From Tepidimonas sp. (GTDB lineage: Bacteria > Pseudomonadota > Gammaproteobacteria > Burkholderiales > Burkholderiaceae_C), in the NCBI RefSeq assembly GCF_029335975.1, contig NZ_JARJMT020000145.1:472-64471 (forward strand): a stretch of DNA of 64,000 nt, in the 5' to 3' direction. The notes beneath the pieces are model-generated. The model saw only the letters and a list, made by a program, of their open reading frames with translations. It did no database searches and had not been told where the DNA came from. Both the position numbers and the translations under genes were made by a program. This document shows, one piece after another, positions 8,850 through 42,500 of this stretch (its first letter is position 1; every line of letters starts with the position of its first letter).

Positions 8850-8908
8850 GGCCCGCCTATGATACGTTGGCGATGCCCGCGAGCGGGACGCTGCCGATCG
8901 GTCCGGGT

Positions 8909-13168: not shown

Positions 13169-13201
13169 GCGATCTTTCTTGCGGCAGGAAACAGCGCATC
13201 A

Positions 13202-13864
13202 TCATGACAGATACAGCCGGTGGCGCTGCACCACCGCTGCGCAGGCGCTGCGGTGAACCTCCTCCACCTCTTCGGCGCTGCGCATGGACACGCACAAGTC
13301 CTGCAACAGGCCGTCCCTGAGGCCGTACACCCAACCGTGCAGCATCACAGGCTGGCTGCGCGCCCAAGCGTCCTGGACGACCGTGGACTGCGCGACATGC
13401 CGCACCTGTTCGATGACGTTGAGCTCGCACAGCACATCCAGCCGGCGTTGCGGGGGGCACGCCTGCAGCAAACGCCGATGGCGGTCCGCCACGTCGCGCA
13501 CATGGCGCAGCCAGTTGTCGGCCAAGCCGACGCGAATGCCCTGCAGCGCCGCTTGCACCCCGCCACAGCCGTAATGCCCCACCACCATCACATGCTGCAC
13601 ATGCAACATGTCCACCGCATATTGGATGGTACTCAGACAATTGAGGTCGGTGGGCACCACGACATTGGCCACATTGCGGTGCACAAAGACCTCGCCCGGC
13701 TCCAGCCCGGTGATCTGGTTGGCCGGCACGCGGCTGTCGGAACATCCGATCCACATATAGCGCGGCGACTGCTGACCGGCCAGCCCCGAGAAAAATCCCG
13801 GACGCTCGGCCTCCATCCGCGACGCCCACTCGCGGTTGCGGACCAGCAGGTGGTGCAGGGACAT
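13202..13864 (-). CDS. can: Beta-class carbonic anhydrase
   Basis: WIGCSDSRVP, VHRNVAN, GHYGCGG; ATG overlaps the ivd stop (TAATG); the longer called ORF upstream is spurious. Confidence 0.93.
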   Translation of the reverse strand: MSLHHLLVRNREWASRMEAERPGFFSGLAGQQSPRYMWIGCSDSRVPANQITGLEPGEVFVHRNVANVVVPTDLNCLSTIQYAVDMLHVQHVMVVGHYGCGGVQAALQGIRVGLADNWLRHVRDVADRHRRLLQACPPQRRLDVLCELNVIEQVRHVAQSTVVQDAWARSQPVMLHGWVYGLRDGLLQDLCVSMRSAEEVEEVHRSACAAVVQRHRLYLS

Positions 13865-15045
13865 TACGCGGTCTCCGCAAACAGTTCGCGGCCGATCAGC
13901 ATGCGTCGGATCTCGCTGGTGCCAGCGCCGATCTCGTAGAGCTTGGCGTCGCGCCACAGGCGGCCGAGCGGATATTCGTTGATGTAGCCATTGCCGCCAA
14001 AGATCTGGATACCGTCGCCAGCCATCTTGGTCGCCTGCTCGGCGCACCACAGGATGACGCTGGCGCAGTCCTTGCGCACCTGGCGCACATGCGCAGCGCC
14101 CAGCCGGTCCAGATTCTTGCCGACGGTATAGAGGAACGAACGCGCTGCCTGCAGCGTGGTATACATGTCGGCCACCTTGGCCTGGATGAGCTGAAACTCG
14201 CCGATGCTCTGACCGAACTGCTTGCGGTCGTGGATGTAGGGGATGACGTTGTCCATCACCGCCTGCATGATGCCCACGGGGCCGGCGGCGAGCACGGCGC
14301 GCTCGTAGTCCAGCCCACTCATCAACACCTTGACGCCGTTGTTGAGGCCGCCCAGGATGTGGTCGGACGGTACCTCGACATTCTGGAACACCAGCTCGCC
14401 CGTGGGGCTGCCGCGCATGCCCAGCTTGTCGAGCTTTTGCGCGATGGAAAAGCCCTTCATGCCCTTTTCGATCAGGAAGGCAGTGATACCGCGCGCACCC
14501 AGCTCGGGCTCGGTCTTGGCATAGACCACCAGCACATCTGCGTCCGGACCGTTGGTGACCCACATCTTGCTGCCGTTGAGCAAATAGTAGCCGCCTTTGT
14601 CTTCGGCGCGCAGCTTCATGCTCACCACGTCGGAGCCGGCGCCGGGCTCGCTCATGGCCAGTGCGCCCACATGCTCGCCGCTGACCAGCTTGGGCAGGTA
14701 TCGGCGCTTTTGCGCCTCGGTGCCGTTGCGGCGGATTTGATTGACGCACAGGTTGGAGTGGGCGCCATAGGACAGCCCCACCGAGGCGCTGGCGCGGCTG
14801 ATTTCCTCCATCGCAATCATGTGCGCCAGATAGCCCATCGCAGCTCCGCCGTACGCCTCCTCCACGGTGATGCCGAGCACGCCCAGTTCCCCCATCTTTG
14901 GCCACAGATCCACGGGGAACTGGTCGGTGCGGTCGATCTCCGCGGCGCGCGGGGCAATTTCCGCCTGGGCAAAGGCGCGCACCGCATCGCGCAGGGCATC
15001 GATGTCGTCACCGAGCTGGAAATCGAGGCCGGGCAAATGGGTCAT
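13864..15045 (-). CDS. liuA: Isovaleryl-CoA dehydrogenase
   Basis: [43 protein letters not shown]; GGAG 6 nt before ATG 15045. Confidence 0.93.
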
Positions 15046-15063
15046 GGACATCTCCTGGGAATT

Positions 15064-15087
15064 ATTGACGTTTACGTAAACGTCAAT
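15064..15087. promoter_or_regulatory. LiuR operator upstream of liuA
   Basis: Perfect 24-bp palindrome ATTGACGTTTACGTAAACGTCAAT, matching the ACGT-N2-ACGT LiuR-type box. Confidence 0.8.
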
Positions 15088-15509
15088 TATGCCGCTTTTT
15101 CGGGCGGGACCTGGCCATCGCCCAGGCGAGCGAGCAAGGCGCGAGCCTCTTTCTCGTGCACCTTGATTTCGTCCAGGGTCGCTTGCAGGTCGGCCATCTG
15201 CTCTTCGATTTGGCGTCGATGGGCGGCTAGCACCTGCAAAAACTTGCGCAACTGCGGCCCGGTATCGCGGGGGCTGTCGTACATGTCGATCAAGTCCTTG
15301 GCCTCGGACAGGCTCAGGCCCAAGCGTTTGGCGCGCAGCACCAGCTTCAGGCGGGTGCGGTCGCGCGCCGTGTAGATCCGACTGCGCCCGCCCGGCCCCC
15401 CTCGACGCGGACTGAGCAGCCCCATGTCTTCATAGAAGCGGATCGCGCGCGTGGTCAGATCGAATTCGCGGGCCAGATCGCGGATGGTGTAAGTGGTGCT
15501 GCTCGCCAT
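15087..15509 (-). CDS. liuR: MerR-family regulator of leucine/isovalerate utilisation
   Basis: [42 protein letters not shown]; adjacent to liuA and flanked by two operators. Confidence 0.88.
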
Positions 15510-15553
15510 GACTGCTAAAATGAATTGCGGCGCCGACACGCGGGCCGCCAATC

Positions 15554-15573
15554 TGACGTTGACGTAAACGTCA
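15554..15573. promoter_or_regulatory. Second LiuR operator, upstream of liuR (autoregulation) and of the divergent prenyltransferase
   Basis: TGACGTTGACGTAAACGTCA, differing from the core of the 15064 palindrome at one base. Confidence 0.75.
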
Positions 15574-15686
15574 AGAAGACCCAATCTTACGGCAGCGCAG
15601 CCCCAAACGGCAGGGCGCGCACGGGCGGCACACCAACCGGCGTAGGACACATCGCAACGTGCCGCGACTTGGCTATAGTGACACGG

Positions 15687-16631
15687 ATGTCGGTATCCCC
15701 CAGCACCCCTTTGAGCCTGTCCGCGGCGTGGCGCCTGAGTCGTCCGGGTTTTCTCTGGGTGACCGTGGCCGCCGTGGCGCTGGGCTTGGCGATGGCGGCG
15801 GCCTGTGGTTGCGGATTCGATCCGCTGCGAGCGGGCATGACGCTGGCGCTGGCGGTCATGGCCCACGCGGCGGCCAACGTCTGGAACGACTACCACGATG
15901 CGCTCAGTGGAGCGGATGCCCTCAACCCAGCGCCGCTGTCGCCGTTTACGGGTGGCTCGCGCGCAATCCCGGAGGGTATCGCATCCCCAGCCCATGCGCG
16001 GCGCTTGGCGCTCGGGCTGACCGGCTGGGTGGTACTGGGCGGTCTGTGGCTGGCCCTGACGGCAGGCGGCGGACTGATCACCATTGGGCTGGCTGGCTTG
16101 TTCCTCGGCTGGGCTTACTCGGCCTCACCGCTGCGGCTCATGGCGCGCGGCTTCGGCGAGCTGGCGGTGGCGCTGGCATGGTGGCTGGTGGTCCTGGGGG
16201 CTTATTACACCCAACGCGGACAGTGGCAGGTCGTACCCATGGTATCGGCCATCCCTTTTGCGCTGTTGGTAGCGGCGATTTTGCTGGTCAACGGCCTGCC
16301 TGATGCCCCCTGGGACGAACCGGTGGGCAAGCGCACCCTCGCGGTGCGTCTTGGCCCAGTGGGCGTGGCGGCGCTCTACTCGGCGCTTGCGGTGCTGGCC
16401 CATGGCGTCTTGGTGGCCGCGGTGTTGGGTGTGATCGCGCCCGAGCGAGCATGGTGGGGTCTGGCCTCGCTGCCGCTGTCGCTTGCAGCGGCAGGCTTGC
16501 TGTGGCGCCACGTCGCCACGCATCAGCCCGTGACCCTGTTGCGCCCTGTCATCGGCCTGACCATCGGCGCGGCCCTGGTGCATGCGCTGGCGCTGACGGG
16601 CGCTTTCGCTGCCATCGCTCGGTCCCTCTGA
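15687..16631 (+). CDS. UbiA-superfamily (MenA-like) prenyltransferase
   Basis: NVWNDYHD and NGLPD...D...GKRTLAVRLG motifs; multiple TM helices. Confidence 0.82.
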   Translation: MSVSPSTPLSLSAAWRLSRPGFLWVTVAAVALGLAMAAACGCGFDPLRAGMTLALAVMAHAAANVWNDYHDALSGADALNPAPLSPFTGGSRAIPEGIASPAHARRLALGLTGWVVLGGLWLALTAGGGLITIGLAGLFLGWAYSASPLRLMARGFGELAVALAWWLVVLGAYYTQRGQWQVVPMVSAIPFALLVAAILLVNGLPDAPWDEPVGKRTLAVRLGPVGVAALYSALAVLAHGVLVAAVLGVIAPERAWWGLASLPLSLAAAGLLWRHVATHQPVTLLRPVIGLTIGAALVHALALTGAFAAIARSL

Positions 16632-27936: not shown

Positions 27937-30672
27937 TCAATTCCATGGTGTGCCCATCAATGTGGCGAGATCCCGGCGCGAGAGTACTGCAGTAAACTCG
28001 CGCCAGTCCTTCTCCGGTGGCATCATCGTGCCCGTGTAACGCAGATCGAAACCTGTCGCTTTCTTCTGGGCATCAATGTACATATCGAGCTTTTCACCTA
28101 AAGACTCGATATCCTCGATCCATTCATCCTTGATGGTATCGGGTAGAGCCCCGAACAAGTCGTAGCGGTTTCGCATACGCTCGGACAGCCGCTCGTAGAT
28201 CTTCTCATCCACGGTCTGCTCGAACACCAGGTTGAGCATGTCAACCGTCTCTCGCCTCTGGCCGAAGCGCTTAATTCGTCCGATGCGCTGTTCCAGCCGT
28301 GTCGGGTTCCAGGGCAGATCCACGTTAATGAGCGTGCCGAGCGTCTGCAGGTTGAGGCCTTCGCATGCGGCATCCGTGGCCACCATGACCCGGATCTGGT
28401 GCTCGGCGACCATCCGCTTCAGGGTCTCGCGCTCCACCGCGACGCTGTCGCCTTGCTGATACAGGCGGCTGCGGCCCGCGCCGGCGTAGAGGCCGATGGC
28501 CTCTTCTGGATACCGGGCGGCCAGCTCATCCGCGAGCCATTTCGCGGTGTCGTAGTACTGGCTGAAGATGATCACGCCGAGATCCAGCCACTTCTCCTTG
28601 TCCAGAAAGTAGATCACGGCCTGCATCTTGGGGTCGACGTCCAGTCGCTGCAGCCTGTCGATGAGGCGCTCCAGCACGTCCCGCTCTTCCTGCGTTTCAA
28701 CGGCCAGGTTGGCCTCGAACTCGTCTCCCTCTTCATGCACAACCTCCCCTTGCAACAGTCGTCGAGCTGTCACGAGTCCGGCTTGGATGCTGGAGCAAAT
28801 GCGCTGCTCCAGCATGTTCTTCATGAACCCACTGCCCTCGCCGCGTTTTGCGAGTGCCTTGCCGAAGGCGCGTGCCTGGCTATAGGCCTCGCGGAAGTCT
28901 TCTGAAGTTCGAAGCGCCTTGCCCTCGAACAGGACGTCGAAGATCCGTGGTTCGGCCACCTTGGAGCGATCCGGGTGAATTTCGACCCCGACCCGTGTGA
29001 GCAGGTTCGCATCTTCCAGCTGCTGTCGTTTGCGAAGCACGACGTGCCTGACCAACGGGTTCTCACGTTGGAACAACGTTGCTCCGGCGATGCGCCGCTC
29101 TAGTTCCTCTTCCAGGATCTCTCGCGTCTCCTCGGCGAGATCGGTCAAGGGGCGATTGGTTTGCCATTCTCCGTTGGTTAGCCCCAAGTCCTGTCGGATA
29201 GCCGACAGCAGTTTACGGGCATGTGGCTCGTTGGTGGACTCGACGCGTGGCAGCGGAGAGCGCAGCAACTCCCAAGCATGGTTGGGGTCCAGTACCTCTT
29301 GCCGACCGGCCAAGATGTCCAGCACTTCATTGGGCCGATGCCAAGCCGCCAGGTCATGTCCCAGGACGAAGCGCCCTAGGCCTTGATGCAGGATACCCAG
29401 CAGGTCCCACAGGTCCCTCGGATCGGTTTGGATGGGGGTGGCTGTACCAAGCAACACATGATCGCCCCGGGCGGCGATTTCGCGCATGAAGGCCAAGAGT
29501 TCGTTCGGCGTTCCGGCGTCCCTGCCGAAGCCCTGGCGCGTGCGCGCCTTGTGGGCTTCGTCCAGGATCACTACGCCGAACCTCAAGCCTAGCAGGTGCT
29601 GCTTCTCCAACGAGTCGCGCATCATAAGGCCCGTGGACACGATGCCGATGCGAAGCGGACAGCGTGCAATCTGCTCGCGACCCGCCGGAGAAATGGCGCG
29701 CTCGTCCGTATCCAGCCACACCTTGCGCACCGTATCCCAGCGTGCGGTCGGGATGCCGAGCTTATCCAGCATCTCGGTCTGCCATTGCTCGGTGAGGGTG
29801 GCCGGCGCAAAGATCACGACCGGGCGTCTTGGCCCGTTGTCACGATCAGAGAGCAAACACAGCGTAAGCGCTGCGGTGGCGAGCGACAGCGTCTTGCCCA
29901 AGCCCACCTCATCGGCCAGCAGCAGCCGCACTACGCCATAGAGCCTGTAGTGGCGCAGGCATTCGGTCAGGAATCCTTGCTGCCACGGCTGTAACTGCTG
30001 CCCCTCGCGGTAGAGCGGGGACTCGATCAGCGCAGCCGGCGCAAGGTTCTCGTCCTCATCGATCTCGTCGAAGACCACTTCGCGGCGCCAGCCACGGCGA
30101 TGAACTTCTCGGATGACCGCCTGCGGCAAGGGCTTCGCCGCTTTCCAAAGGAAGTCGAACTCTTCTTCGATCCAGGCCACCCCCTCGGGGGACTCGTCTT
30201 CCCACAAGATCTCGTAATGACGCTGCCAGCCGCTGCGCGTCTCATTCATTGAGCCGATGAAGCCCAGCCTCCGGCCATCCGCCAAGGTGATCACACCGGC
30301 CTTGCCATGCACGAAACCGCAGACATTGTCGGGCGCTACCCGCACGGCCTGCCCATGCTTCTGCAAAAAGGCATCGAGGCGCCGATAGCGGTCGCGGTGG
30401 AGCAGGACTTCTGCCCCCAGAGCACGCTCATTCCAGCGTCCCAGCATCTTGCTTTCGCGCAACTGGGCGACCTTCAAGTCATCCGGATGGATATCGACGT
30501 TGCAAACGATCTTGACTTCGGGGATGCACTCCAAGATCTCACCAGCCACCTCAAATAATGAACTGGTGAAATAGCCCGCAATGCGCTTGTAGCTGCGAGC
30601 GCCCGCCAAGTGCCTCATTAGGAAGCTGGCATCCAGCCGATGCGTTCTGGAGGAAAAGCGGCGAATGCCCAT
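27937..30672 (-). CDS. PLD-like nuclease fused to SNF2-family helicase (RL/BREX-related defence effector)
   Basis: N-terminal HGKAG...GSMNET (HxK/GSxN); LLADEVGLGKT, DEAH, TDAACEGLNLQ, QRIGRIKR. Confidence 0.9.
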   Translation of the reverse strand: MGIRRFSSRTHRLDASFLMRHLAGARSYKRIAGYFTSSLFEVAGEILECIPEVKIVCNVDIHPDDLKVAQLRESKMLGRWNERALGAEVLLHRDRYRRLDAFLQKHGQAVRVAPDNVCGFVHGKAGVITLADGRRLGFIGSMNETRSGWQRHYEILWEDESPEGVAWIEEEFDFLWKAAKPLPQAVIREVHRRGWRREVVFDEIDEDENLAPAALIESPLYREGQQLQPWQQGFLTECLRHYRLYGVVRLLLADEVGLGKTLSLATAALTLCLLSDRDNGPRRPVVIFAPATLTEQWQTEMLDKLGIPTARWDTVRKVWLDTDERAISPAGREQIARCPLRIGIVSTGLMMRDSLEKQHLLGLRFGVVILDEAHKARTRQGFGRDAGTPNELLAFMREIAARGDHVLLGTATPIQTDPRDLWDLLGILHQGLGRFVLGHDLAAWHRPNEVLDILAGRQEVLDPNHAWELLRSPLPRVESTNEPHARKLLSAIRQDLGLTNGEWQTNRPLTDLAEETREILEEELERRIAGATLFQRENPLVRHVVLRKRQQLEDANLLTRVGVEIHPDRSKVAEPRIFDVLFEGKALRTSEDFREAYSQARAFGKALAKRGEGSGFMKNMLEQRICSSIQAGLVTARRLLQGEVVHEEGDEFEANLAVETQEERDVLERLIDRLQRLDVDPKMQAVIYFLDKEKWLDLGVIIFSQYYDTAKWLADELAARYPEEAIGLYAGAGRSRLYQQGDSVAVERETLKRMVAEHQIRVMVATDAACEGLNLQTLGTLINVDLPWNPTRLEQRIGRIKRFGQRRETVDMLNLVFEQTVDEKIYERLSERMRNRYDLFGALPDTIKDEWIEDIESLGEKLDMYIDAQKKATGFDLRYTGTMMPPEKDWREFTAVLSRRDLATLMGTPWN

Positions 30673-30678
30673 GGTGCA

Positions 30679-32073
30679 TCAATTGCGTGGCTTTACGCCG
30701 CCCTTGCGGCCCAGGCCAAAGCCCACGCGGTATAGGTCCGGCATATCGATCCGACCGTCCTTTTTGGTTTCGATCAGCCCAAGACGCTGCAGATCCTCCC
30801 GGATACCTTTCCAGCCGCGGTCGACATGTTGAGCAGGCAAACGCTCCGAGCGAATCTCCTCGGGCCCCGTCGAAAACTTCTCTTGCCACCGAGTCAAGAC
30901 ATCCTCATAGGTACATGGGACATTCATTCCTTGGAGCGCCGAGAGGACTTCCGGTACCCAGGGATAATCCTCGGCGACTTCGGTCACCCGGATTTCGGAC
31001 GCCTTTTGAATGCCGCGTTTGATACTTTCGTAATGCAGGGCAAACGGATGATCCTGATATCGTACACTGGAATCCTCCGCTGCCTGACGAATGGCCGCAA
31101 GAAACGAGCGCGGTGAAGTCTGACCGCGGCCATCCGCGAGGTGCCCGACCGACCATGTGTAAGGGATGCCGCGGCGCGGATCGCGCCCCATCCATGGTCC
31201 GGCGAGTCGTTCGAACGCCTTGCGTTGTGTTTCGGTTTCGCGTTTCATCTCATCGGCAACCAGCCAAGCGCCTTCGCCTTGTTCTGCCGGACAAATTTTC
31301 CGCATCAAGCTGCCATGATCGCCGCAGGCATTGATCAAGCGCTGCCAAAGCAGTCCATGCAAATCATGTCGCGCCCAATTTAGGTCAGCTTTGGTGGCCA
31401 ACAGCTTGGAAGCATCCGGAAAGTTGAAAACAGTGCGTTCCGCCTGATCTTCCCGCAGAAAAATCTTGCCATGAAGCCCAGGATAAGACTTGAGCCATAG
31501 CAGCGCGCGCAGCAGCCCACGTACGATGTCATCCATGCGCTTCCAGTCATTGCTGGTGCGATCGAGAGAATCGAAAAGAATGAGGCCGCGCCATGTACGT
31601 GGCTGCTGCATCAGGCGCGCCGACTCTTCCGGCCTGTTTTTTAGCCAGGCAACGGTTTCTGGCCAGCTTGCAGACGGAATGGTCTGCTGTGCATGATCTG
31701 CCACCCAGCGCAGCATGACTGCACGCCAAAGATCATAGGGATCTCCACCTTGGGCGATGAAAGCTGAGAAAACATCGGCATTGGGATAGCGGTCGATGGC
31801 CTCCTTGCCCGCAAAGCCCACTTGCACCACGATGTCTTTCAATTCTGGCGCCGCAGAGCCCAGCAGGCTTCGCAACGATTCAGACTGCAACGCGGCGGTC
31901 CAAAAGGATTTGCCCACCCCGCGGCCGCCGATGATCACGTGAGCATCCAGCTTGAGCGCCTTCAGATGTGACAGGGGAACGTAGAGCGTCCGCGCATCCG
32001 GTATCTCGCCGAAGTTGCTGGTTTCCAGGGGTGCCGCCAAGATGGCATCCCGCAACGCTTGAGCTTCAGTCAT
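30679..32073 (-). CDS. P-loop NTPase of STAND-like architecture with no evident effector domain
   Basis: Walker A GGRGVGKS, Walker B LILFDSLD, KIFLRED, C-terminal winged-helix-like LQRLGLI...MPDLYRVGFGL; ATG overlaps the ParA stop by 8 bp. Confidence 0.75.
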   Translation of the reverse strand: MTEAQALRDAILAAPLETSNFGEIPDARTLYVPLSHLKALKLDAHVIIGGRGVGKSFWTAALQSESLRSLLGSAAPELKDIVVQVGFAGKEAIDRYPNADVFSAFIAQGGDPYDLWRAVMLRWVADHAQQTIPSASWPETVAWLKNRPEESARLMQQPRTWRGLILFDSLDRTSNDWKRMDDIVRGLLRALLWLKSYPGLHGKIFLREDQAERTVFNFPDASKLLATKADLNWARHDLHGLLWQRLINACGDHGSLMRKICPAEQGEGAWLVADEMKRETETQRKAFERLAGPWMGRDPRRGIPYTWSVGHLADGRGQTSPRSFLAAIRQAAEDSSVRYQDHPFALHYESIKRGIQKASEIRVTEVAEDYPWVPEVLSALQGMNVPCTYEDVLTRWQEKFSTGPEEIRSERLPAQHVDRGWKGIREDLQRLGLIETKKDGRIDMPDLYRVGFGLGRKGGVKPRN

Positions 32074-33421
32074 GGTTAATCTCTGAATCGAGCAAGCCCC
32101 TAACACCCTCGATCAAGCCCCCGAAGATGGCATTCACTTCTGCGGCATCGATGACGGCAAGTCGCCCCTGCAATGAACGAAGTCCGGCGAAGCTCCTGTG
32201 CCAATGCACCACCCAAGGAGAATGCGGAGCGCCTTCGTCCGCCTCGTCGAAATTCCATCCCTCCACGATTTCCCAGACTCGCCACATCTCACGCTCTCCT
32301 TCCTTCTTCCGTTCAATGGAATCAGGAGGTGGAGGTGCAATTTCGTCATACAGCGAATCAGCAAAAACTTGGTACGCGCCCTCGCGAAGCCCCTTGAGAT
32401 AGTCGATCCGATCAACCTCTGGAACCAGGGCCGCCACGCTTTTGAGGCGTTCACGAATCTGTCGCGCTACCCCAGCACGCCGCCAGTGCTCGAACAGGAT
32501 GCGGTAGCCGTTCCAGGTCTGGCAGCCTTCCAAGGTGAACAGCAGCACCAGGTTTGCGCCCAGATCGGTGACGCAGGCGGACGCCACCTCGTCGATACCC
32601 GCACGCGAATCGATCAACACCACATCGGGACGAATACGCCCCTCCAGCGCCTGCAATAGTCGATGCAATCGGCTGGACCATGACTGTCGTGTCCCGTCCG
32701 CTTGAATCTTGGGCATCCACACCCGCCCCAACTTGGCCACATATTCACCGGGATCGGCGCCATGCGCCGGCGCCACATAGATTTCGCCATCATAGGCGAG
32801 GTCACTGGTGGCGATCATGCTTTCAAACACCGTATCGGCGTTTTCCACCAGATCCTCCACCAGCCAGTCGGTTATGCCGTACTTGGGCTGCCGTTCGGGT
32901 GGCAACAGGCTGGAAGACAGGCCGGGGGATTCCAAATCTAGGTCCAGCACCAGCACACGCTTGCCCGCTTGTGCCAGCCGCCACGCGCAGGCGGCCAGCG
33001 CCGTGGAACGACCGACGCCACCTTTGATCGAAAAAAACACGATGCGACGCGGTCCTTGGGTTTCTGGAGCAATTTCCGCCCAGTTGCCTTCGGTCGCCAG
33101 GCGGTCGATCAGCCAGACATTGGTGAAATCTTCCAGCCGAAAACCCGTGGCGCCAGAGCAAGCAGCCTCGCGGCTCACTTCGAACAATAGGCCGGATTCG
33201 GGCGGATACGCATGCGGAGCAATGCGCTCGGCAAGCTCCCGATAAATCCTCTCGACCTGCCGCCGCGGCTCTTCCTGGCGCTCGACGGGTTCAGGCGCGA
33301 TGAAGCGCGCACGCCCGTTGAGGTCGCGATTGACGACGAGCCAATCGATCTGCTCAAGCGCATCACGGTGTGCGTTCAACACCCCCACCGTTGCGGTGAG
33401 AATTTCATCGAACGTCGTCAT
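32066..33421 (-). CDS. ParA/MinD-like ATPase with KGGVGR variant Walker A
   Basis: FFSIKGGVGRST, VLVLDLDLESPG, VVLIDSRAG; ~120-aa N-terminal extension; ATGA overlap with the HEPN-like gene. Confidence 0.85.
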   Translation of the reverse strand: MTTFDEILTATVGVLNAHRDALEQIDWLVVNRDLNGRARFIAPEPVERQEEPRRQVERIYRELAERIAPHAYPPESGLLFEVSREAACSGATGFRLEDFTNVWLIDRLATEGNWAEIAPETQGPRRIVFFSIKGGVGRSTALAACAWRLAQAGKRVLVLDLDLESPGLSSSLLPPERQPKYGITDWLVEDLVENADTVFESMIATSDLAYDGEIYVAPAHGADPGEYVAKLGRVWMPKIQADGTRQSWSSRLHRLLQALEGRIRPDVVLIDSRAGIDEVASACVTDLGANLVLLFTLEGCQTWNGYRILFEHWRRAGVARQIRERLKSVAALVPEVDRIDYLKGLREGAYQVFADSLYDEIAPPPPDSIERKKEGEREMWRVWEIVEGWNFDEADEGAPHSPWVVHWHRSFAGLRSLQGRLAVIDAAEVNAIFGGLIEGVRGLLDSEINHD

Positions 33422-33834
33422 AGCAATCCGTCCTTTTGCGCCTTTTTGATCAGTGCGCGGACAACGCTTGCGCCAGACTGGTGCGCCTGCGTGCGCGCCT
33501 GATCAAAGTTGGACTGATGGGCATAGCGCTGCGCCACGTCCCAGTCACTGAAGGGATTGGGCGTTGACAGTGCATACGCCGCGCCTTGATGATGACCGCA
33601 GCGATAGCTTTCATAGCGGTCCCAGATTTTGTTGGCATGCACTTGGTCTCGGCCCTCGGCTGGGCGGTCGCGTGTCGAGTCATACGGCATACCGAAGGCC
33701 AGCATCAGTCGCTTCAAACCGCACTCGGCCGCCACACCATACAGATGATCGGCATTTGCCCAGCGTCCTGTCTGGAACAAGCCCTCCGCATCGGTCCAAT
33801 GCCGCTCATGCGCATCCAGGAAATCTGCTTGCAT
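33418..33834 (-). CDS. Small HEPN-like protein (138 aa)
   Basis: A..L....R...A.HLYGVAAECGLK helix, conserved-looking H (QVH), W...RY (WDVAQRY); GAGGA SD before ATG 33834. Confidence 0.6.
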   Translation of the reverse strand: MQADFLDAHERHWTDAEGLFQTGRWANADHLYGVAAECGLKRLMLAFGMPYDSTRDRPAEGRDQVHANKIWDRYESYRCGHHQGAAYALSTPNPFSDWDVAQRYAHQSNFDQARTQAHQSGASVVRALIKKAQKDGLL

Positions 33835-33844
33835 GTCGTCTTCC

Positions 33845-36802
33845 TCAATCCCCAAAGCGCAGGTTCTTCAAGCGCGCGCCCAGCACCTCGGCGGCGCTGC
33901 GCACGTTTGGTTCCATCGACTTGCGCTCGATGAAGGCCAGCACGTCCACCAGCAGCGGGCGCGTTTCGAGAAAGTCCGCCATCTCGTTCTTGATCTGCTC
34001 GACGATGATTTGCGGCTCGGTGTCCTTGAGCATCTGCTGCAAGGCGATGATGAGACGGCCCAGCCGGGTTGGGCCGAGTTCGGTTGCGTCGGTCAGGTCG
34101 CGCGAGGCGAACTCAGTCACGCGCTTGAGCCGCGCGTGATTGGGGCGCATATCGCCCATCACGCGGCTGTAGTCCTCTACACGGAAGGCTTTGGCAAAGT
34201 TCTGATAGTTGTCGAGCTTCTGCGCGCCGGTCGTCTCCATGTCCAGCATGCGGCAATAGAAGCGCTCGATGCCGGTGAGCTTGGCCCAGGTGTCCGGGGC
34301 AAGGCCTTCGGGTACCAAGAGGCTGGATGCCGTTTCTGCCGCCTGTTGGACGATTTCATCGACGACGGTCACTTCCCCGCGGGCACGCGGGCGCAGAGCA
34401 AAAGTCGTCACGTCCTCGCCACCGATGTGGGTGTAGGCGGTCAGCACCTTGAGCGCCGCTGCATAGCCCGCCATTTGCAGGTCGGCATCGCTCCACACCG
34501 GCTCGCCGTGATGCGCCTTCATCGTGTCGTTCAAGTGCATCATGGTCTCGATTTGACGCTGAACCTCCTGTCGCACGGCGGGCAGGAGGCGCTGTTTGAA
34601 GCCCGTGCGCTCGCCTGCGGGGCGCTTCTTCAGCATCAGGATGACGGTGCCCTGCACATAGCCCCCCTTCTTGAGCTCGGAGGTCGTCTCGGTGGCGATG
34701 TACCAGGCGGCCACGACTTGCAGGCCCGCCGCCCAGAAGATGCCGATCAGGTCGCTCCACACCCCGGTATCCTGGTGCGTGAACATCACGCACTGCAGGC
34801 CGTTGTCGGGCATGTGCTCGCGCATCGCGGTATAGGCCGCCACCATGCCGCGGCGGAAGTCCTCGCCCGTGCCTTTGATGGCCAGCGCCCGGCGCGAATC
34901 CCACACCCATGCATCGAACGGCTTGGGCGGATTTTTGCGCAGCCAAGCGATAAAGAACTCGGTGATCTCGTGGTAGTTGACCGCGTCGGCGTAAGGGGGA
35001 TCGGTGATCCAGAGCTCGCAGTCCTGGGCGGGACGATCAGCAGTCGCCGAGACGATGGATCGCTCTACGTCGGGCAGCGGCGCTTCTGCCATCTTGAACG
35101 ACGAGGCGCCGAACCCGAGCCAGGCCCGTGTGGCGTAGTTGTAGAAGGTGTTGAGGGCTTGATTCGAGAACACGCCCTTGGGGCCGCCCAACCCGCCGCC
35201 CTGCGCGGTTGCCCACCGGCACAGCTTCGAGTTGAAATCCGCTGCCTTGGCCACGTTCAGCCAGCCAAGAGGCGCCGCATTCGAGGCCCGCCAATGCTTC
35301 TGCATCAAGGCCTGCAGCAGCAGTTGCCGTGCATTGTAGAGATGGTGCCAATGCGTCCAGCCGCGCTCGCGGAATAAACGCGTGGTCTCGTCCCCCGGCT
35401 CGATGGCCATGTCGGGTGCCAATCCCTCTTCCTGCCAGCGGGCGAGGTTCTCGGCAACGAGGGCTTCCACCTTGCGCTCGCGATCGAGGTCCGCTTCCGT
35501 GGGGGCGGCAAAGAAGGTCTCCTGACGGGGGGCGTCGATCGTTTCCTTCTTGATCCATTGGATGCAGTAGAGTCGCTCCTGGAAGATGTCGTCCGGCCGC
35601 GGCTGGAATTCGCTCTTCTCCCAGCGGCGCAGCCGGTTGCCTGTTGAGCCATTCGCCAGCCGGTAGTCGCCACGCAAGGTCTTGATGGGCGTGCGGTAGG
35701 TCTTGCCATCGAGCTCGTAGACCATATCGCCATCCTGCACCGTGCCAGTTTCGGCTGCTGCAATCGCCTTCGCCGAGGCACCGGTAACGATCTCGATGTC
35801 AAAGCGCTTCAGGGCAGGGTCCGGCACCAGCTTGGCGATGGCGCCTTGCTTGGGCGAGATCACCCAGCTGGGGGCGAGCGGCACCCTCCAGCCGGTTTCC
35901 GGGCAGCGCGCCTCCAGGCAGTAGAGGTAGGCCTTGGCGCGGTTGCCTTGTTCGTCATGCTCGATGCCAAGTCGCGTGATCTCGGCATCCACCTCGGCAA
36001 ACACCCGTTGCTGCGCGGACTCCAGGGCGGCGCGCCGGTCGGTCGGGGCACCGATGACATTGAGCGCCCCCCAGGTGAGCATGCAGGCGATGGGGTTGAG
36101 ATCGGAGGCATAGGCATCGCACCCGATGCGTGCTGCCTCGAAGGGGATGGAGCCGCCACCGCAGAACGTGTCGCCCACGCGCGGGCGATGGCCATAGCGC
36201 AGGATGCCGAGCTGCTCGATCAACTCCGGGAACGAATGGGCATCGATGCCCAAATGCGCGTAGTGGCGGTTGACCTTGGGCCATACTGGTGCGTAGAGCC
36301 AATCTGGATCGACCTCTTCAGGGCGTTTGCACAGGCTCGCCTTGGCCTCGTAACTGGGAAGCCGCGCCAGGGCGCGCCGATACAGCGCCAGCTTGTCGTC
36401 GTCGGTGGCGTCGCGCCGCCAGCCGCGCGCGCTGAAGTAGCGCTCTGGGTTGGATAGCGCAAGCATCTCCGTAAGCCTAGCCGCCGAGAAGGCGTTGGCG
36501 GCGAGCGCCCGGCGGGCCAGGCCCTCATCGTCGAAAGCCATCAGCGCCTCGAACACCGCCAGATCGGCCTCGGGGTCGTGGGTAGGCGGCAAAAGGCTAC
36601 CCAGCACGATGGCGCGTACCAGGATCAAGGGTTTCCTGCCCTTCCAGTAAGAGCCAAGCCCAGTCAAGGTCTGCGCCGCAACCGCCTTCCGTTCACTCTG
36701 CGCCTCGAAGGAAACCTTTTGCGCGGGGAAAACCGTCTCGATCAACGCCGGTGCATCTTTCAGCGCCAGCGGGGCGAGGGTTGTTCTTGTTTGTGCAAGC
36801 AT
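33845..36802 (-). CDS. DUF1156-type amino-DNA methyltransferase (probable N6-adenine)
   Basis: LTGLGSYWKGRKPL N-terminus, motif I DTFCGGGSIPFEA, motif IV TDPPY; 985 aa. Confidence 0.88.
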   Translation of the reverse strand: MLAQTRTTLAPLALKDAPALIETVFPAQKVSFEAQSERKAVAAQTLTGLGSYWKGRKPLILVRAIVLGSLLPPTHDPEADLAVFEALMAFDDEGLARRALAANAFSAARLTEMLALSNPERYFSARGWRRDATDDDKLALYRRALARLPSYEAKASLCKRPEEVDPDWLYAPVWPKVNRHYAHLGIDAHSFPELIEQLGILRYGHRPRVGDTFCGGGSIPFEAARIGCDAYASDLNPIACMLTWGALNVIGAPTDRRAALESAQQRVFAEVDAEITRLGIEHDEQGNRAKAYLYCLEARCPETGWRVPLAPSWVISPKQGAIAKLVPDPALKRFDIEIVTGASAKAIAAAETGTVQDGDMVYELDGKTYRTPIKTLRGDYRLANGSTGNRLRRWEKSEFQPRPDDIFQERLYCIQWIKKETIDAPRQETFFAAPTEADLDRERKVEALVAENLARWQEEGLAPDMAIEPGDETTRLFRERGWTHWHHLYNARQLLLQALMQKHWRASNAAPLGWLNVAKAADFNSKLCRWATAQGGGLGGPKGVFSNQALNTFYNYATRAWLGFGASSFKMAEAPLPDVERSIVSATADRPAQDCELWITDPPYADAVNYHEITEFFIAWLRKNPPKPFDAWVWDSRRALAIKGTGEDFRRGMVAAYTAMREHMPDNGLQCVMFTHQDTGVWSDLIGIFWAAGLQVVAAWYIATETTSELKKGGYVQGTVILMLKKRPAGERTGFKQRLLPAVRQEVQRQIETMMHLNDTMKAHHGEPVWSDADLQMAGYAAALKVLTAYTHIGGEDVTTFALRPRARGEVTVVDEIVQQAAETASSLLVPEGLAPDTWAKLTGIERFYCRMLDMETTGAQKLDNYQNFAKAFRVEDYSRVMGDMRPNHARLKRVTEFASRDLTDATELGPTRLGRLIIALQQMLKDTEPQIIVEQIKNEMADFLETRPLLVDVLAFIERKSMEPNVRSAAEVLGARLKNLRFGD

Positions 36803-36815
36803 GGCAAGGTGATCT

Positions 36816-37865
36816 TCAAGCGGTCACTGCCTGCACCCAGCCTTGGGCGGCCAATCTGTCGGCGGCGATGGCGATCTGCCGGAGCGTGAACTGGCGCTTG
36901 CGCGGGTTCCAGGCGTGAATGCGCTTGGCTACCTCGTCGAGCTGACTCACCCCCTCGCGCGACAAGACCCAATGCACGGTCGAGAGCAACTCAAGACCGT
37001 ATGGTGACTCGAAGCCTTCGACGAGACGGGTGACGCGCTCGAGGCGTTCGCGGCTGTCGGCATGTTGGTCGAGGAAGGCGGACGCCTCCTGGATGGCGCC
37101 GGGAACCAGCGTCAGAGGCTTGTCCGGCGCATCGCCGCCGTCGGCGTAACCGGCGATCAGGTGCCCCTCGACCGTGCGCAGCACGTGGCGCAGGTTTTCC
37201 GCGTAAGGGCCATAGGGTGCCTTGACGTACTTCAGGCGCAGCGGCTCCCCAGCCTCCTGCATGAAGTACATCAGCTTGTGGATCTCCAGCAAGGTCACGA
37301 AGGGGTCGAGCAAGCCGCTGAGATAACGGTGGATCAATTCAACCAAGGCCGCACGACCGGCAGTCATGGTTGGCACTTCACGCACATGGGCCATCTTGTC
37401 AGGGGTGGGCGCACCAAAGGGCTCGAACACGAGCACGTACACGTCCTCCAGTTGCTCCAGCGCTCGCTCGATGCGTGGGCGTACGTCGTTCCACTCCAAG
37501 CCTCCCAGGCCGCTGCCCAGCGGTGGGATGGCGATGGACCGGATGCCCTTCTCGCGAATGACCCGGGCCAGATCGACCAAGCCTGCTTCGATGTCCTCGA
37601 TGCGGCTCTTACCGCGCCAATGGCGCTTGGTTGGGAAGTTGATGATGAAGCGCGGCGGCGTGAGCTGCCCCGTCTCGAAGACAAACATGCGGCCGGGTTG
37701 CACGGCCTCGCGCTTGCAGGCAGCCTCGTAAGCCTTGAAATTCTCAGGGAATGCGTTCTTGAACTGCAAGGCGATCCCGCGCCCCATCACGCCGACGCAG
37801 TTGACGGTGTTGACCAGCGCGTCCGCTTCACACTTGAGGATGTCGCCCGAGGTAAACTCGATCAT
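36816..37865 (-). CDS. darG: DarG antitoxin: macrodomain ADP-ribosyl glycohydrolase plus C-terminal domain
   Basis: GDIL...ADALVNTVNCVGVMGRGIALQFK, IINFPTKRHWR, SIAIPPLGSGLGGLEW; directly downstream of darT. Confidence 0.9.
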   Translation of the reverse strand: MIEFTSGDILKCEADALVNTVNCVGVMGRGIALQFKNAFPENFKAYEAACKREAVQPGRMFVFETGQLTPPRFIINFPTKRHWRGKSRIEDIEAGLVDLARVIREKGIRSIAIPPLGSGLGGLEWNDVRPRIERALEQLEDVYVLVFEPFGAPTPDKMAHVREVPTMTAGRAALVELIHRYLSGLLDPFVTLLEIHKLMYFMQEAGEPLRLKYVKAPYGPYAENLRHVLRTVEGHLIAGYADGGDAPDKPLTLVPGAIQEASAFLDQHADSRERLERVTRLVEGFESPYGLELLSTVHWVLSREGVSQLDEVAKRIHAWNPRKRQFTLRQIAIAADRLAAQGWVQAVTA

Positions 37866-37885
37866 GGCTGTGCCCCTCTCATTTC

Positions 37886-38536
37886 TCAGTAATACCAATC
37901 CGGGCGGATTTCGACCGTAGGTCGGTGTCCGTTTACCGGAAGGGCGTTCACAACCTGCTGGTAGATCGTGCGATTGAGTACGCCAACGCGCTGGATCAGG
38001 TGCCAGGGAAAGCTGTGCTCCAGCAGAAACTCGGCTTGCTTGCCTTCCTTGCACTGCCGCCAATCTCGCGCTTGAACAGCCACCCAGTCGATTTCGTCGA
38101 GGCGTGCCAAATCGCAACGGTCCTCGAAGAAGTACGAACCAGCGTTCGAGAGGGTGAAGGCCCACCGCCTCTGTTGGGCTTGTGCCCAAGCAACGGTGGC
38201 ATGCAGATCGGCTTCGAAATGCAGGATCGGGGCCTGTCCACCGCGGTAGCCAAGCTCCGGATGATTGCCCTGGTGGATCAGGTACAACATCACCGAGCGC
38301 GGGCAGAAGTAGAACGGCACGCAGTCGCCCACGTGCAGGTCGGGATGGCTGCTGAGGCGCAGTTCGTTCAAGCGCCGCTGCTTGATGCCATTCATGCCAA
38401 TGATAGTGCCCGGCGGCATGCGTCGCACGATCTCCGCATCGCACCAAAGAAAACCGTCCGCCACGATGGAGGGTAGACGATCTACGTGGGCAATGTGGTA
38501 GATCTTTGGCTGCGGGGGTACGAGGCCGTTGGTCAT
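37886..38536 (-). CDS. darT: DarT DNA ADP-ribosyltransferase toxin (DUF4433)
   Basis: IYHIAHVDRLPSI, CVPFYFCPRSVMLY, FTLSNA, KQAEFLL (catalytic Glu); ATG overlaps the DUF3780 stop. Confidence 0.9.
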   Translation of the reverse strand: MTNGLVPPQPKIYHIAHVDRLPSIVADGFLWCDAEIVRRMPPGTIIGMNGIKQRRLNELRLSSHPDLHVGDCVPFYFCPRSVMLYLIHQGNHPELGYRGGQAPILHFEADLHATVAWAQAQQRRWAFTLSNAGSYFFEDRCDLARLDEIDWVAVQARDWRQCKEGKQAEFLLEHSFPWHLIQRVGVLNRTIYQQVVNALPVNGHRPTVEIRPDWYY

Positions 38537-39168
38537 GCCGTGTCGTCCCCGAACAGATCCAGCGATGGCCGGGTGTCGTCGCGGTCGTTTTGGCTGCGGC
38601 GGCCGCGGGTGCACAGCAACTCGCTCTGCGCGACATCACCCAAGGCATGCTGAAGCGCGATGCGCCACCCCTTGCCGGCGTCCATGACGCCGCCTGTCGC
38701 CATGGCGGTCATGCCAAACAGCCACCAGCGCTCCTCGGGCCGAAGCGCCAGCCAGTTCCTTACGGCGACGGGGATCTTGGATGCCTCCAGCTGCTCGACG
38801 GCCCAGGCCAGGACGCAGAGTTCCTTGCCGAGCAGGCGATCCACAGGGTTCTCGCCGATCTTCCATGCACTGGGCTTCAGCGCATGCGCGGTGAGGCGTG
38901 CGTTGAAGGCCCGCTGCACCTCAGCACGGATGGCCGTCCAGCGCGGCCGGTCGAGCAAGACGCGGTCGATCACCGCGGTATCGCTTGATGCCGATTGCAG
39001 GCCGAGGTACTCGCTGATCTGAACCTTGCCCGTGCTGCTCTTGGGGATGAGCACCTTGAAGTGATGCGGGTCTGAGGTCGCGGGCACCCCGAAGCCCAGC
39101 GTATGCTGGACATGCGCACGCCCTGCTAGCGTCCGGGTTGCGCGGCGCAAGGCTTGCGTCATGGTCAT
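38533..39168 (-). CDS. DUF3780-like protein of the RL defence system
   Basis: GFG...HHF.V.IP, VDRLLGKELCVLAWAVE, NWLALRPEERWWLF; coupled to the DUF499 gene. Confidence 0.82.
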   Translation of the reverse strand: MTMTQALRRATRTLAGRAHVQHTLGFGVPATSDPHHFKVLIPKSSTGKVQISEYLGLQSASSDTAVIDRVLLDRPRWTAIRAEVQRAFNARLTAHALKPSAWKIGENPVDRLLGKELCVLAWAVEQLEASKIPVAVRNWLALRPEERWWLFGMTAMATGGVMDAGKGWRIALQHALGDVAQSELLCTRGRRSQNDRDDTRPSLDLFGDDTA

Positions 39169-42100: not shown

Positions 42101-42290
42101 TGCCCGACAAGCGCAGCAGCCCCTCGCGGAACAGTTGCTCCATGCCGTGCGTGACGAAGTTGCGTGAGAAGAACTCCCGCCCGTCTCCCTCGTCATTGAT
42201 GAGTTCTGCCAGATTCTCGATGCCTTGGCTCATCCGGTAGTCTCGGATGATCGAATTGAACCGGCAGGCCTGCTTGACCGTCTTGATCAT
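39165..42290 (-). CDS. DUF499-family AAA+ ATPase (1041 aa) with C-terminal Fn3/Ig-like domains
   Basis: LTQAMGGGKTH, ILLDELPPY, YPFHP, FRQTRGL; YYTLDGSNP near the C-terminus; start MIKTVK overlaps the RHH stop. Confidence 0.88.
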   Translation of the reverse strand: MIKTVKQACRFNSIIRDYRMSQGIENLAELINDEGDGREFFSRNFVTHGMEQLFREGLLRLSGKSDQAVFELTQAMGGGKTHMMIALGLLARHPHLRSDVLPPDLAARVDFDTARIAAFNGRNNPDNYIWGEIASQLGAEDAIKPYWANGPKAVDQRKWKEIIGSEPTLILLDELPPYLDNASTQVFGQGTLANMVVYSLSSLMSAALELPNCAIVVANLAGSYKAQTKALSDAISNLQQETRRQAMTITPVQLAGNEIYEILKKRLIDELPDERVISDVAEEYAQQIKKAEDGGYIVASSIEQIAEQVRETYPFHPSFKHLVALFKENEGFRQTRGLMQFTARLLKSVEERDTDDVFLIGTQHLNLNDDQVKDEIERIAPKLMPAVTRDIADNGNAIAEHIDDELGSDAARQVMTLLLASSLSRAVGGRIGLSESELIEFLAAPQRKPDEFLQAMQRLREAAWYLHREERRFFIKETENLSRQIERNAKEVPQPKVDQALINRLTGILEPVRKIAYQDVQVLPKLDELKLSGPRTLIVIKPDGKVPPSELQNFFDYQQEKNNLLVLTGQDSLLADAVEERLRELYAIEQIHKRLRPGDTLFEEARDRLEEAEDRFGKALSAAYNRLYFPVNDPVDGRDVLAGVTIDQGLKIGQGDQSAEAQIESLLASPRADYKLVRELTKGNLDEYFAMAEEYLWPSGKDNRRTPWKDVVMRAKCSPIWPWMPGASGLDTLKTEALKQGRWRLGEDGYIEKGPFPKDKATVNVSVVNIKADSGETVLSLTPRHAGDSPVVYWSTKPEVTDKDQKVDDLDNFTTTQGTLYFWVKDTTGQHESAPPVRWLADLKIRHQVEPAADKRRVRLEATPRAELYYTLDGSNPKDGTRYDGPFEIGVGSFRLLVFARAGEANKTADFQIQASGDKTVQIVDAKPARLQSKRVSLDTTDRVFGVINRFRDQPGTRFKGVRIEIGEGENTVTVRFQEREVTAAMIEGVVNSLRDVLGEPEAMVNIAIAEGIQFDTGFALKEFAKIAGVELKPGDVSQEE

Positions 42291-42484
42291 GAGCGCACTT
42301 CGCTGTTGTTCTCGGCTTCGTCGGAGGGCGGAATCTCGATCCCGCATTGCTCGCAATAGTCGCGAATCAGGACCTCGACCATGTTGGCGATCGACCGATG
42401 TTCGAGATTTGCCGCGAGGCGCAGCGCCTCCTTGAGAGCGGGATCGATCCGAAAGGTCAGGGTAGCGGTTTTGCGTGCGACCAT
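42287..42484 (-). CDS. Ribbon-helix-helix (CopG/Arc-like) small regulator, first gene of the defence operon
   Basis: MVARKTATLTFRIDPALKEALRLAANLEHRSIANMVEVLIRDYC; alternating beta-strand then two helices; GGAGAGG SD. Confidence 0.8.
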   Translation of the reverse strand: MVARKTATLTFRIDPALKEALRLAANLEHRSIANMVEVLIRDYCEQCGIEIPPSDEAENNSEVRS

Positions 42485-42500
42485 AGCCTCTCCGGAAGCC

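Follow-up and report, generated by a model that had tools for sequence, protein, structure and literature searches.

A three-gene cassette in a Tepidimonas genome, whose members we call genes A, B and C, is very probably the candidate defence system that has been listed as PDC-M28 and described as HINPO. The stretch under study is a 64-kb window, and all coordinates below are positions in that window. Read in this order on the minus strand, gene A (33418..33834, 138 aa) encodes a small all-helical protein with a supported HEPN fold. Gene B (32066..33421, 451 aa) encodes a ParA/MinD-type (SIMIBI) ATPase of the 'ConB2' kind that is extended by an extra domain at either terminus, and gene C (30679..32073, 464 aa) encodes an ORC/Cdc6-like AAA+ ATPase with a C-terminal winged-helix region. 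The module is already described, in two computational sources, and is not a new system. It is a self-contained, horizontally mobile cassette, and on balance we favour the view that it works as an anti-invader (anti-phage or anti-plasmid) system controlled by two NTPases.

Each of the three proteins has a full-length hidden Markov model match in PADLOC-DB. PDC-M28A (PDLC04558) matches gene A at E 3.2e-57 over residues 1-137 of 138, PDC-M28B (PDLC04559) matches gene B at E 4.9e-181 over 1-446 of 451, and PDC-M28C (PDLC04561) matches gene C at E 3.9e-204 over 1-463 of 464. PDC-M28 is defined by the order A>>B>>C, contiguous and on one strand, which is the arrangement found here. Matches this strong, and the recurrence of the order in ~68 of the 74 loci that can be judged (below), lie well outside what chance would give. 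PADLOC-DB v2 includes the PDC systems, which derive from a 'guilt-by-embedding' survey by Payne, Hughes, Fineran and Jackson (2024, bioRxiv 10.1101/2024.01.29.577857). In that survey, cassette CAS_00115 (FAM_01482>>FAM_02546>>FAM_01036) is marked 'Assign as candidate PDC-M28', and the founding cassettes are embedded in BREX, DISARM or type I restriction-modification (RM) systems (10.1101/2024.01.29.577857). The cassette in the window shares with them the same three families in the same order, as well as the nesting inside a multi-gene defence system. It differs in its host, which is a DUF499/DUF1156/DUF3780/PLD-helicase system and not BREX, DISARM or type I RM. The PDC-M28 entry is itself a list item without domain analysis or test.

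The same architecture is treated as HINPO (HEPN, inactive-NTase-ParA, ORC/CDC6) in a preprint by Li, Burroughs and Aravind dated 22 October 2026 (bioRxiv 10.64898/2026.10.19.760177). There, the upstream gene encodes a previously uncharacterised HEPN, PA-HEPN1, whose position gene A occupies. The ParA is a member of the 'ConB2' clade, in which the Walker A Lys is Arg and sensor-1 is followed by a PG motif, and carries an N-terminal fusion that is fast-evolving and was placed by structure among inactive Pol-beta nucleotidyltransferases. The downstream gene encodes an ORC-CDC6/STAND AAA+ protein (10.64898/2026.10.19.760177). Our trio shares the upstream HEPN gene, the ConB2 ParA with its Arg Walker A, PG motif and faster-evolving N-terminal domain, and the downstream ATPase. 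The main text of the preprint is silent on a fixed nesting in BREX-related operons. The original prediction for this DNA had called the module undescribed and without a named match. It had named an exact match to an already described system as refuting it. A PADLOC search, one of the checks it had proposed, returned the full-length matches to PDC-M28A/B/C given above, and with the HINPO architecture also the same, the claim of novelty falls.

The trio lies within one minus-strand operon that spans 27.9-42.8 kb and is transcribed in the order DUF499, DUF3780, DarT, DarG, DUF1156 methyltransferase, genes A-B-C and PLD-SNF2 helicase. The core of Type-2 BREX-related (BR) systems consists of four genes, encoding a DUF499 ATPase, an N6-methyltransferase, an HKD-Swi2/Snf2 helicase and a standalone DUF3780 protein (PMC12839542). 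PADLOC and Pfam identify all four components in the operon, which is a Type-2 BR system with the trio and DarTG outside its core. The four-gene, restriction-like core from which the original prediction had excluded the trio is this system. Base composition agrees with the division: GC content at third codon positions is 0.62-0.67 in the trio, 0.66 in the open reading frame (ORF) spanning DarT-DarG, 0.75-0.82 in the BR genes and ~0.85 in the flanking host genes.

The junctions are just as the original prediction gave them, with three translationally coupled genes inserted between the methyltransferase and the PLD-helicase. Gene A begins with an ATG at 33834, 10 bp past the methyltransferase stop and with GAGGA 8 nt upstream. 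The A-B overlap is the ATGA at 33418-33421, and the start of gene C lies within the end of gene B, with 8 bp shared (32066-32073). Gene C stops at 30679-30681, and a 6-bp gap separates it from the helicase ATG at 30672. The gene A start at 33834 agrees with homologue N-termini (MQADFLDAH), as does the ATG at 32073 for gene C.

Folds and conserved residues of the three proteins

Gene A matches no Pfam family above threshold, with HEPN_AbiV at E 0.15, and a PDB sequence search with a divergent gene A profile gave nothing meaningful. Its AlphaFold2 (AF2) model, based on 34 homologues, has a predicted local distance difference test (pLDDT) score of 88 and is all-helical, with helices at residues 4-21, 25-46, 67-80 and 112-134. 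The best eight Foldseek matches in the PDB are all HEPN proteins (including 1ufb, 2q00, 1wol, 1o3u, 2hsb and sacsin 3o10), with probabilities of 0.8-1.0 but weak E-values (0.04-0.8) and template modelling scores of 0.5-0.6. The family comprises 830 clusters at 50% identity in a profile search of 1.84 billion representatives. Among 52 divergent full-length members, 21 have weak Pfam matches to HEPN_AbiV (best 5e-5) and three to HEPN (PF05168). Only fold comparison and these weak Pfam matches link gene A to HEPN proteins, and they support the predicted HEPN fold, closest to the AbiV type. The residue pattern noted in the original prediction (E37, C38, K41, H66, W98, R103 and Y104) is present, and most of it is invariant. 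In a divergent alignment at 32-63% identity, the invariant positions are R11, G33, E37, C38, K41, W98, R103 and Y104, while H66 and H118 are conserved in more than 90%.

Two known kinds of HEPN system invite comparison. AbiV (PF18728), the lactococcal abortive-infection HEPN protein, is the closest Pfam family by sequence, and its structure 9bj7 is among the fold matches of gene A; it differs in working as a single gene, and the gene A matches to it fall below the Pfam threshold. Type VII HEPN-MNT toxin-antitoxin (TA) pairs resemble the trio in that a small HEPN gene adjoins a nucleotidyltransferase-type partner, and the best structural matches of gene A include several minimal PF05168-type HEPN-domain proteins. 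Here, in contrast, the Rx4-6H motif is missing, the partner domain is said to be inactive and is fused to a ParA, and there is a third, ORC-like ATPase. Many gene A homologues are named 'SAM-dependent methyltransferase' in NCBI/UniRef records, which looks like a propagated mis-annotation because gene A is a predicted 138-aa helical bundle of HEPN fold. The family also includes longer fusions, among them P0440 (425 aa, with the gene-A-like part at 289-420) and P0422 (276 aa). One of the 52 members has a Fic/DOC domain (Pfam 1.5e-16), of which the 425-aa P0440 is the likely carrier.

In gene B, the Pfam families CbiA, ArsA and ParA match the P-loop region only. The deviant Walker A, K133-G-G-V-G-R138-S139 (33005..33025, minus strand), has Arg at the canonical P-loop Lys position. 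This KGGVGRS segment (residues 133-139) is invariant in 70 sequences and is aligned by a PDB profile search with KGGVGK[TS] of ArsA, MinD, Soj and Mrp structures. It is followed by D160-L-D162-L-E-S-P166-G167, in which D160, D162 and P166 are invariant in the 70 sequences and G167 in 30, and a Walker B of the form D266-hhhh-D271 is present. Judged by these motifs, gene B bears the marks of ConB2, namely Arg in the Walker A and PG after DxD, and the ParA/MinD ATPase with an Arg-for-Lys Walker A and extra terminal regions was correctly foreseen. Gene B shares with classical ParABS/MinDE the SIMIBI fold, the signature Lys, the DxD sensor and the DhhhhD Walker B. It differs in the Arg at the P-loop Lys, in its extra terminal domains and in having no ParB/MinE partner: by PADLOC and Pfam, its neighbours in the operon are BR genes, DarTG and genes A and C, with no ParB/MinE-type protein. 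Lys-to-Arg mutants of the Walker A in ParA-family proteins bind nucleotide and hydrolyse it slowly, and by analogy the natural Arg P-loop of gene B should do the same.

The domains of gene B are unequally conserved. Mean column identity is 0.71 in the ParA core (residues 123-345), as against 0.43 in the N-terminal domain (residues 1-122; 33056..33421, minus strand) and 0.47 in the C-terminal domain (residues 346-451). The low value for the N-terminal domain fits the 'rapidly evolving N-terminal domain' of the HINPO preprint, where it is held to be an inactive Pol-beta nucleotidyltransferase. Its invariant residues are N31, R32, D33, L34, R39, D106, R107, L108 and W114. A PDB profile search with residues 1-122 returned only 4-oxalocrotonate tautomerase (E 0.36), and Pfam at E<=10 returned only HTH_34 (0.19). 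When the domain was compared by hhalign with 19 PF01909 MNT proteins harvested from related genomes, the probability reported by the program was 0.3%. By these sequence and profile methods, the HINPO assignment of this domain was not reproduced, nor was it refuted.

Gene C has no Pfam family match. Its AF2 model (pLDDT 72) is best matched by Foldseek to Cdc6/ORC structures (1fnn at 1.2e-5; also 9gjw, 7jgr and 7tjh, at 1e-5 to 9e-4), and the BREX ATPase BrxC is also matched (9zll at 7e-4; 9zdx). The motifs GGRGVGKS, FDSLD and FLRED are present, and the residues G49, R51, G52, G54, K55, F167, D168, L170, D171, F205, L206, R207 and D209 are invariant. Gene C is probably an active ATPase, because its Walker A (G49...K55-S56) and Walker B (F167-D168...D171) are invariant. 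Pfam showed no sensor repeats of the STAND (NACHT/NB-ARC) type and no N-terminal effector domain, and the model points to an ORC/Cdc6-clade AAA+ protein with a winged-helix end and not to a classical STAND sensor. The original prediction had proposed a STAND-like NTPase; its P-loop motifs, winged-helix tail and absence of an effector domain are borne out, but the protein has its nearest counterparts in Cdc6/ORC and BrxC and not in classical STAND sensors. An AAA+ plus winged-helix fold is common to gene C and the BrxC/DUF499 and Cdc6/ORC ATPases. Gene C differs from them in its much smaller size (464 aa), in having no detectable sequence similarity to them and in a conserved disordered tail. 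This tail (residues 441-464, RIDMPDLYRVGFGLGRKGGVKPRN; 30682..30753, minus strand) is the most conserved segment of the protein, with a 20-residue block at 0.92 and the consensus RxDMPDLYRxGFGLxRxGGV. Residues 447-464 are predicted to be disordered (pLDDT <50, AF2). The tail may be a partner-docking or activator peptide.

Distribution of the trio and its nesting in BREX-related operons

We surveyed one genome per species for relatives of gene C, which were found by two peptide patterns alone. They occurred in 155 of 185,579 genomes, a base rate of ~0.08% of species, and 80 loci were fetched. Completeness was judged on the 74 loci whose contig allows judgement, ~68 of which have all three genes in the order A-B-C. 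The trio is incomplete in L078 (no gene A), L028 (gene C alone) and L066 (a stub of gene B), and it is degraded in L049 and L080. Homologues number 839 for gene A, 2759 for gene B and 1647 for gene C. The trio's hosts belong to Pseudomonadota, Acidobacteriota, Chloroflexota, Chlorobiota, Synergistota, Spirochaetota, Nitrospirota, Verrucomicrobiota and Bacillota; most are unicellular Pseudomonadota, with some Chloroflexota and cable bacteria. In the Tepidimonas genome (a 2.15-Mb assembly of 200 contigs) the trio is single-copy.

Two of the exceptional loci merit a description of their own. In L028 (Verminephrobacter), the lone gene C stands between ORFs of 901 aa and 1442 aa (7250-9955 and 11422-15750); neither has a Pfam match, and the 901-aa ORF has no PADLOC match either. 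In L066 (Trinickia, 9676-10008), gene B is reduced to its first 37 positions, upstream of gene C.

Nesting in a BR operon is a recurrent state of the trio. At 14 of the 80 loci it occupies the same junction, between methyltransferase and helicase, of a Type-2 BR system that seems intact or is cut off by the contig; the copy of Thauera phenylacetica B4P (L010) is embedded in this way. Four further loci have an intact trio flanked only by BR stubs, that is, the methyltransferase 3' end or the helicase 5' end (L005:11440-11700; L007:8086-8238; L019:8012-8170; L008:7863-8222 and 11429-11686), which are the remains of a decayed or left-behind host operon. The remaining 62 have no BR genes within the available flanks; Azotobacter vinelandii NBRC 13581 (L058) has such a stand-alone copy. 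The self-contained unit that had been predicted is in line with the order kept in ~68 of the 74 loci and with these 62.

On a maximum-likelihood tree of gene C the BR-embedded state is scattered, with 13 changes by parsimony against a shuffled mean of 16.4, and at least six changes are forced by well-supported branches. A single origin of the BR-embedded state was rejected on account of the at least six forced changes; one ancestral embedding may have been followed by many exits. The trio has entered or left BR operons repeatedly and outlives a decaying host system, which argues for an autonomous function and not for a subunit of the BR system.

A census of two genes on each side covered the neighbours of the non-BR trios. 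All-against-all clustering of the flanking proteins found no recurrent neighbour besides the BR genes, the neighbours being unrelated to one another. Some belong to defence families, in that PglX, PglZ, a type I restriction endonuclease, QatD, mad3/mad8, SspH, PtuA/HEC-01, AbiEi and PDC-S01/S18/M51 were found. The trio is often seen alongside defence genes.

Copies on mobile elements are scarce. No copy was found in the phage records searched, and of 72,556 plasmid records only 23 contain even a distant homologue. An IncF plasmid of Enterobacter and a plasmid of Tistrella carry complete trios. The former, pSurvcare220 of Enterobacter bugandensis (L082:4140-7470), holds a complete distant PDC-M28 trio with a gene C 37% identical and a gene A whose match is to PDLC04557, the longer PDC-M28A model (6e-126). 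This trio is part of an accessory region, adjoining a tyrosine recombinase and two GNAT/DUF1778 TA pairs.

Proposed function and alternative explanations

We infer a model of sensor, switch and effector that is essentially the one already in the literature as the HINPO proposal, and we put forward its specific mechanism tentatively. Gene C, via its winged helix, would recognise invader DNA or a replication-type structure and then engage the ParA-like gene B. The Arg P-loop would turn gene B into a nucleotide switch, slow and long-lived, that forms dimers or multimers. Either a ParA assembly would then block the invader, or gene A would be released or activated, or both would happen, and gene A, once freed, would bring about RNA cleavage, dormancy or abortive infection. 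A trio carried in a BR operon would provide a second line of defence once restriction had failed.

A more elaborate version, which we regard as a long shot, takes the cassette to be a HEPN-MNT-type TA system rebuilt as an NTPase-gated immune switch. A degenerate N-terminal domain of gene B would hold a gene A dimer inactive by binding, which would replace AMPylation, and the Arg-P-loop core would be a slow latch. The tail of gene C would act like a ParB/MinE activator peptide, so that gene C on invader DNA would fire ParA turnover and free gene A. The repeated nesting between methyltransferase and helicase would, on this proposal, reflect a guard of BREX-related systems against phage inhibitors.

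Several points weigh against an anti-invader role or against parts of the mechanism. The literature holds no experiment that we could find on PDC-M28 or HINPO: the two sources treat the system by computation, and no paper came up in a full-text search for 'PDC-M28'. Two other PDC systems, assayed in one native-host study, gave no protection. The best 120 homologues of each of A, B and C are 66-86% identical across phyla, which is unusually conserved for immune sensors. The neighbours of the non-BR trios mostly belong to housekeeping families, and support from defence islands is moderate as a result; the recurrence of the triad apart from BR genes, for which the original prediction had proposed a survey, is seen, and a setting among defence genes is found in part. 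As to expression, no RNA run holds the sequence; two metagenome runs hold part of it at a low share, and a third from the same sample holds next to none. The nucleotidyltransferase identity of the gene B N-terminal domain is not confirmed by sequence or profile methods. Lastly, the canonical HEPN motif Rx4-6H, expected at the start of the last helix, is absent from gene A. Its conserved pair R103/H118 is 14 residues apart (R103-x14-H118), and R114-x3-H118 is present in 30 of 34 close homologues and lost in the wider family. Because the motif is missing, RNase activity of gene A is uncertain, though plausible from the many conserved polar residues. The small RNase of the original prediction keeps its HEPN fold and loses its canonical motif.

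The missing Rx4-6H also lends itself to an explanation in which gene A is a catalytically dead sensor or adaptor, and the effector is a ParA assembly nucleated by gene C on invader DNA, without cell killing. The HINPO authors regard ParA multimerisation as the primary action and the HEPN as a back-up, and they also describe ParA systems with inactive HEPN domains, the archaeal dual HEPN system (10.64898/2026.10.19.760177). One BR-embedded copy, L078, does without gene A. This explanation is nonetheless unlikely, as the invariant or nearly invariant polar residues of gene A at 32-63% identity (R11, E37, C38, K41, H66, R103, Y104 and H118) resemble an active site, and the gene is kept in nearly all copies.

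A HEPN protein with a nucleotidyltransferase-type antitoxin makes a classic TA pair. The trio could by that precedent be an addiction or stabilisation module, with a HEPN toxin held by B and C, which lacks a dedicated anti-phage role and persists by stabilising carrier islands or plasmids. Consistent with this are the minimal PF05168-type HEPN proteins among the fold matches of gene A, an IncF plasmid whose accessory region carries a trio next to GNAT/DUF1778 TA pairs and a recombinase, and the persistence of the trio as its host BR system decays. Two large ATPases would, however, be a costly antitoxin, and only 23 plasmid records out of 72,556 have even distant homologues. Many TA systems also protect against phage, so that the explanation overlaps with the anti-invader role that we favour. 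As a full account of the trio we find it improbable.

It is rather improbable, too, that the Type-2 BR system uses the trio as accessory subunits, such as an additional BrxC/ORC-like ATPase and a loader that modify restriction or methylation. In favour of such a role, the insertion point does not vary, translational coupling ties the trio into the operon, about a fifth of the copies are BR-linked, and the fold of gene C resembles BrxC, the BREX counterpart of the host DUF499 ATPase (PMC12839542). Against such a role, 62 of the 80 copies have no BR genes nearby, and the stubs beside the intact trios of L005, L007 and L019 show that the trio outlives its host system. No gene of the trio is among the four of the published Type-2 BR core (PMC12839542). 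Elsewhere the trio adjoins BREX PglX/PglZ and a type I restriction endonuclease, and PDC-M28 was itself defined from embedding in BREX, DISARM or type I RM (10.1101/2024.01.29.577857).

The family memberships of B and C suggest a module for the partition and replication of a mobile element, in which ParA would serve segregation and the ORC-like protein would be an initiator, but this was rejected as very improbable. There is no ParB or centromere partner in the operon, the canonical P-loop Lys is replaced by Arg, the phage records have no copy and plasmid copies are very rare (only 23 distant matches), chromosomal copies have housekeeping genes on either side and no other genes of mobile elements, and the trio is nested inside defence operons.

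Host operon, other cargo and significance

All genes of the host operon lie on the minus strand. The DUF499 AAA+ ATPase (39165..~42320, ~1040 aa, start uncertain) matches PADLOC DUF499 at E 0 over 12-1050 of the trimmed frame, and the DUF3780 protein (38533..39168, 211 aa) matches Pfam DUF3780 at 1.6e-74. The DUF1156 N6-adenine methyltransferase (33845..36802, 985 aa) is identified by PADLOC DUF1156_MTase at E 0 and Pfam DUF1156. Downstream of the trio, the PLD(HKD)-SNF2 helicase (27937..30672, 911 aa) is identified by PADLOC PLD_Helicase at E 0 and by Pfam PLDc_2, SNF2-rel_dom and Helicase_C. The operon is flanked by housekeeping genes (Lnt, CorC, acyl-CoA synthetase, SucCD and PyrF), and no defence island was found around it in the window. 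A search for tRNA genes across the whole 64 kb found none.

The DarT-DarG pair (36816-38536) is a second independent cargo of the operon, nested between DUF3780 and the methyltransferase. DarT (37886..~38536) matches PADLOC DarT at 6e-67 and Pfam DarT, and DarG (36816..37892) matches PADLOC DarG at 3e-141 and Pfam Macro; the DarT ATG at 38536 overlaps the DUF3780 stop. In relatives, the cargo of this slot varies. DarTG occupies it in L001, L010, L040 and L062, as in the window, whereas L016 (3331-5244) and L046 (3925-5202) have proteins of 637 aa and 425 aa that match pAgo-associated N-terminal domains (PADLOC pAgo and Aga_SIR2-PNTD, 3e-17). L072 (3771-5246) has three small unknown ORFs in the slot, and L055 and L078 have it empty. 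Just upstream of the DUF499 gene, a small ORF at 42287-42490 (minus strand) contains a ribbon-helix-helix-like looking sequence (...LTFRIDPALKEALRLAANLEHRSIANMVEVLIRDY...) and has no PADLOC or Pfam match. It may be a regulator of the operon.

PDC-M28/HINPO is widespread and has twice been predicted to be immune in function, with no test reported. To this known candidate our analysis adds the missing HEPN motif, the lack of PDB, Pfam or MNT-profile similarity in the gene B N-terminal domain, the conserved gene C tail, a fixed nesting site with BR stubs, and natural homologues that lend themselves to cloning. If validated, the trio would provide the first demonstration that a ParA-type (SIMIBI) switch whose P-loop naturally has Arg plays a part in immunity, and a clear example of layered defence, in which a cargo is nested in a BREX-related operon beside DarTG.

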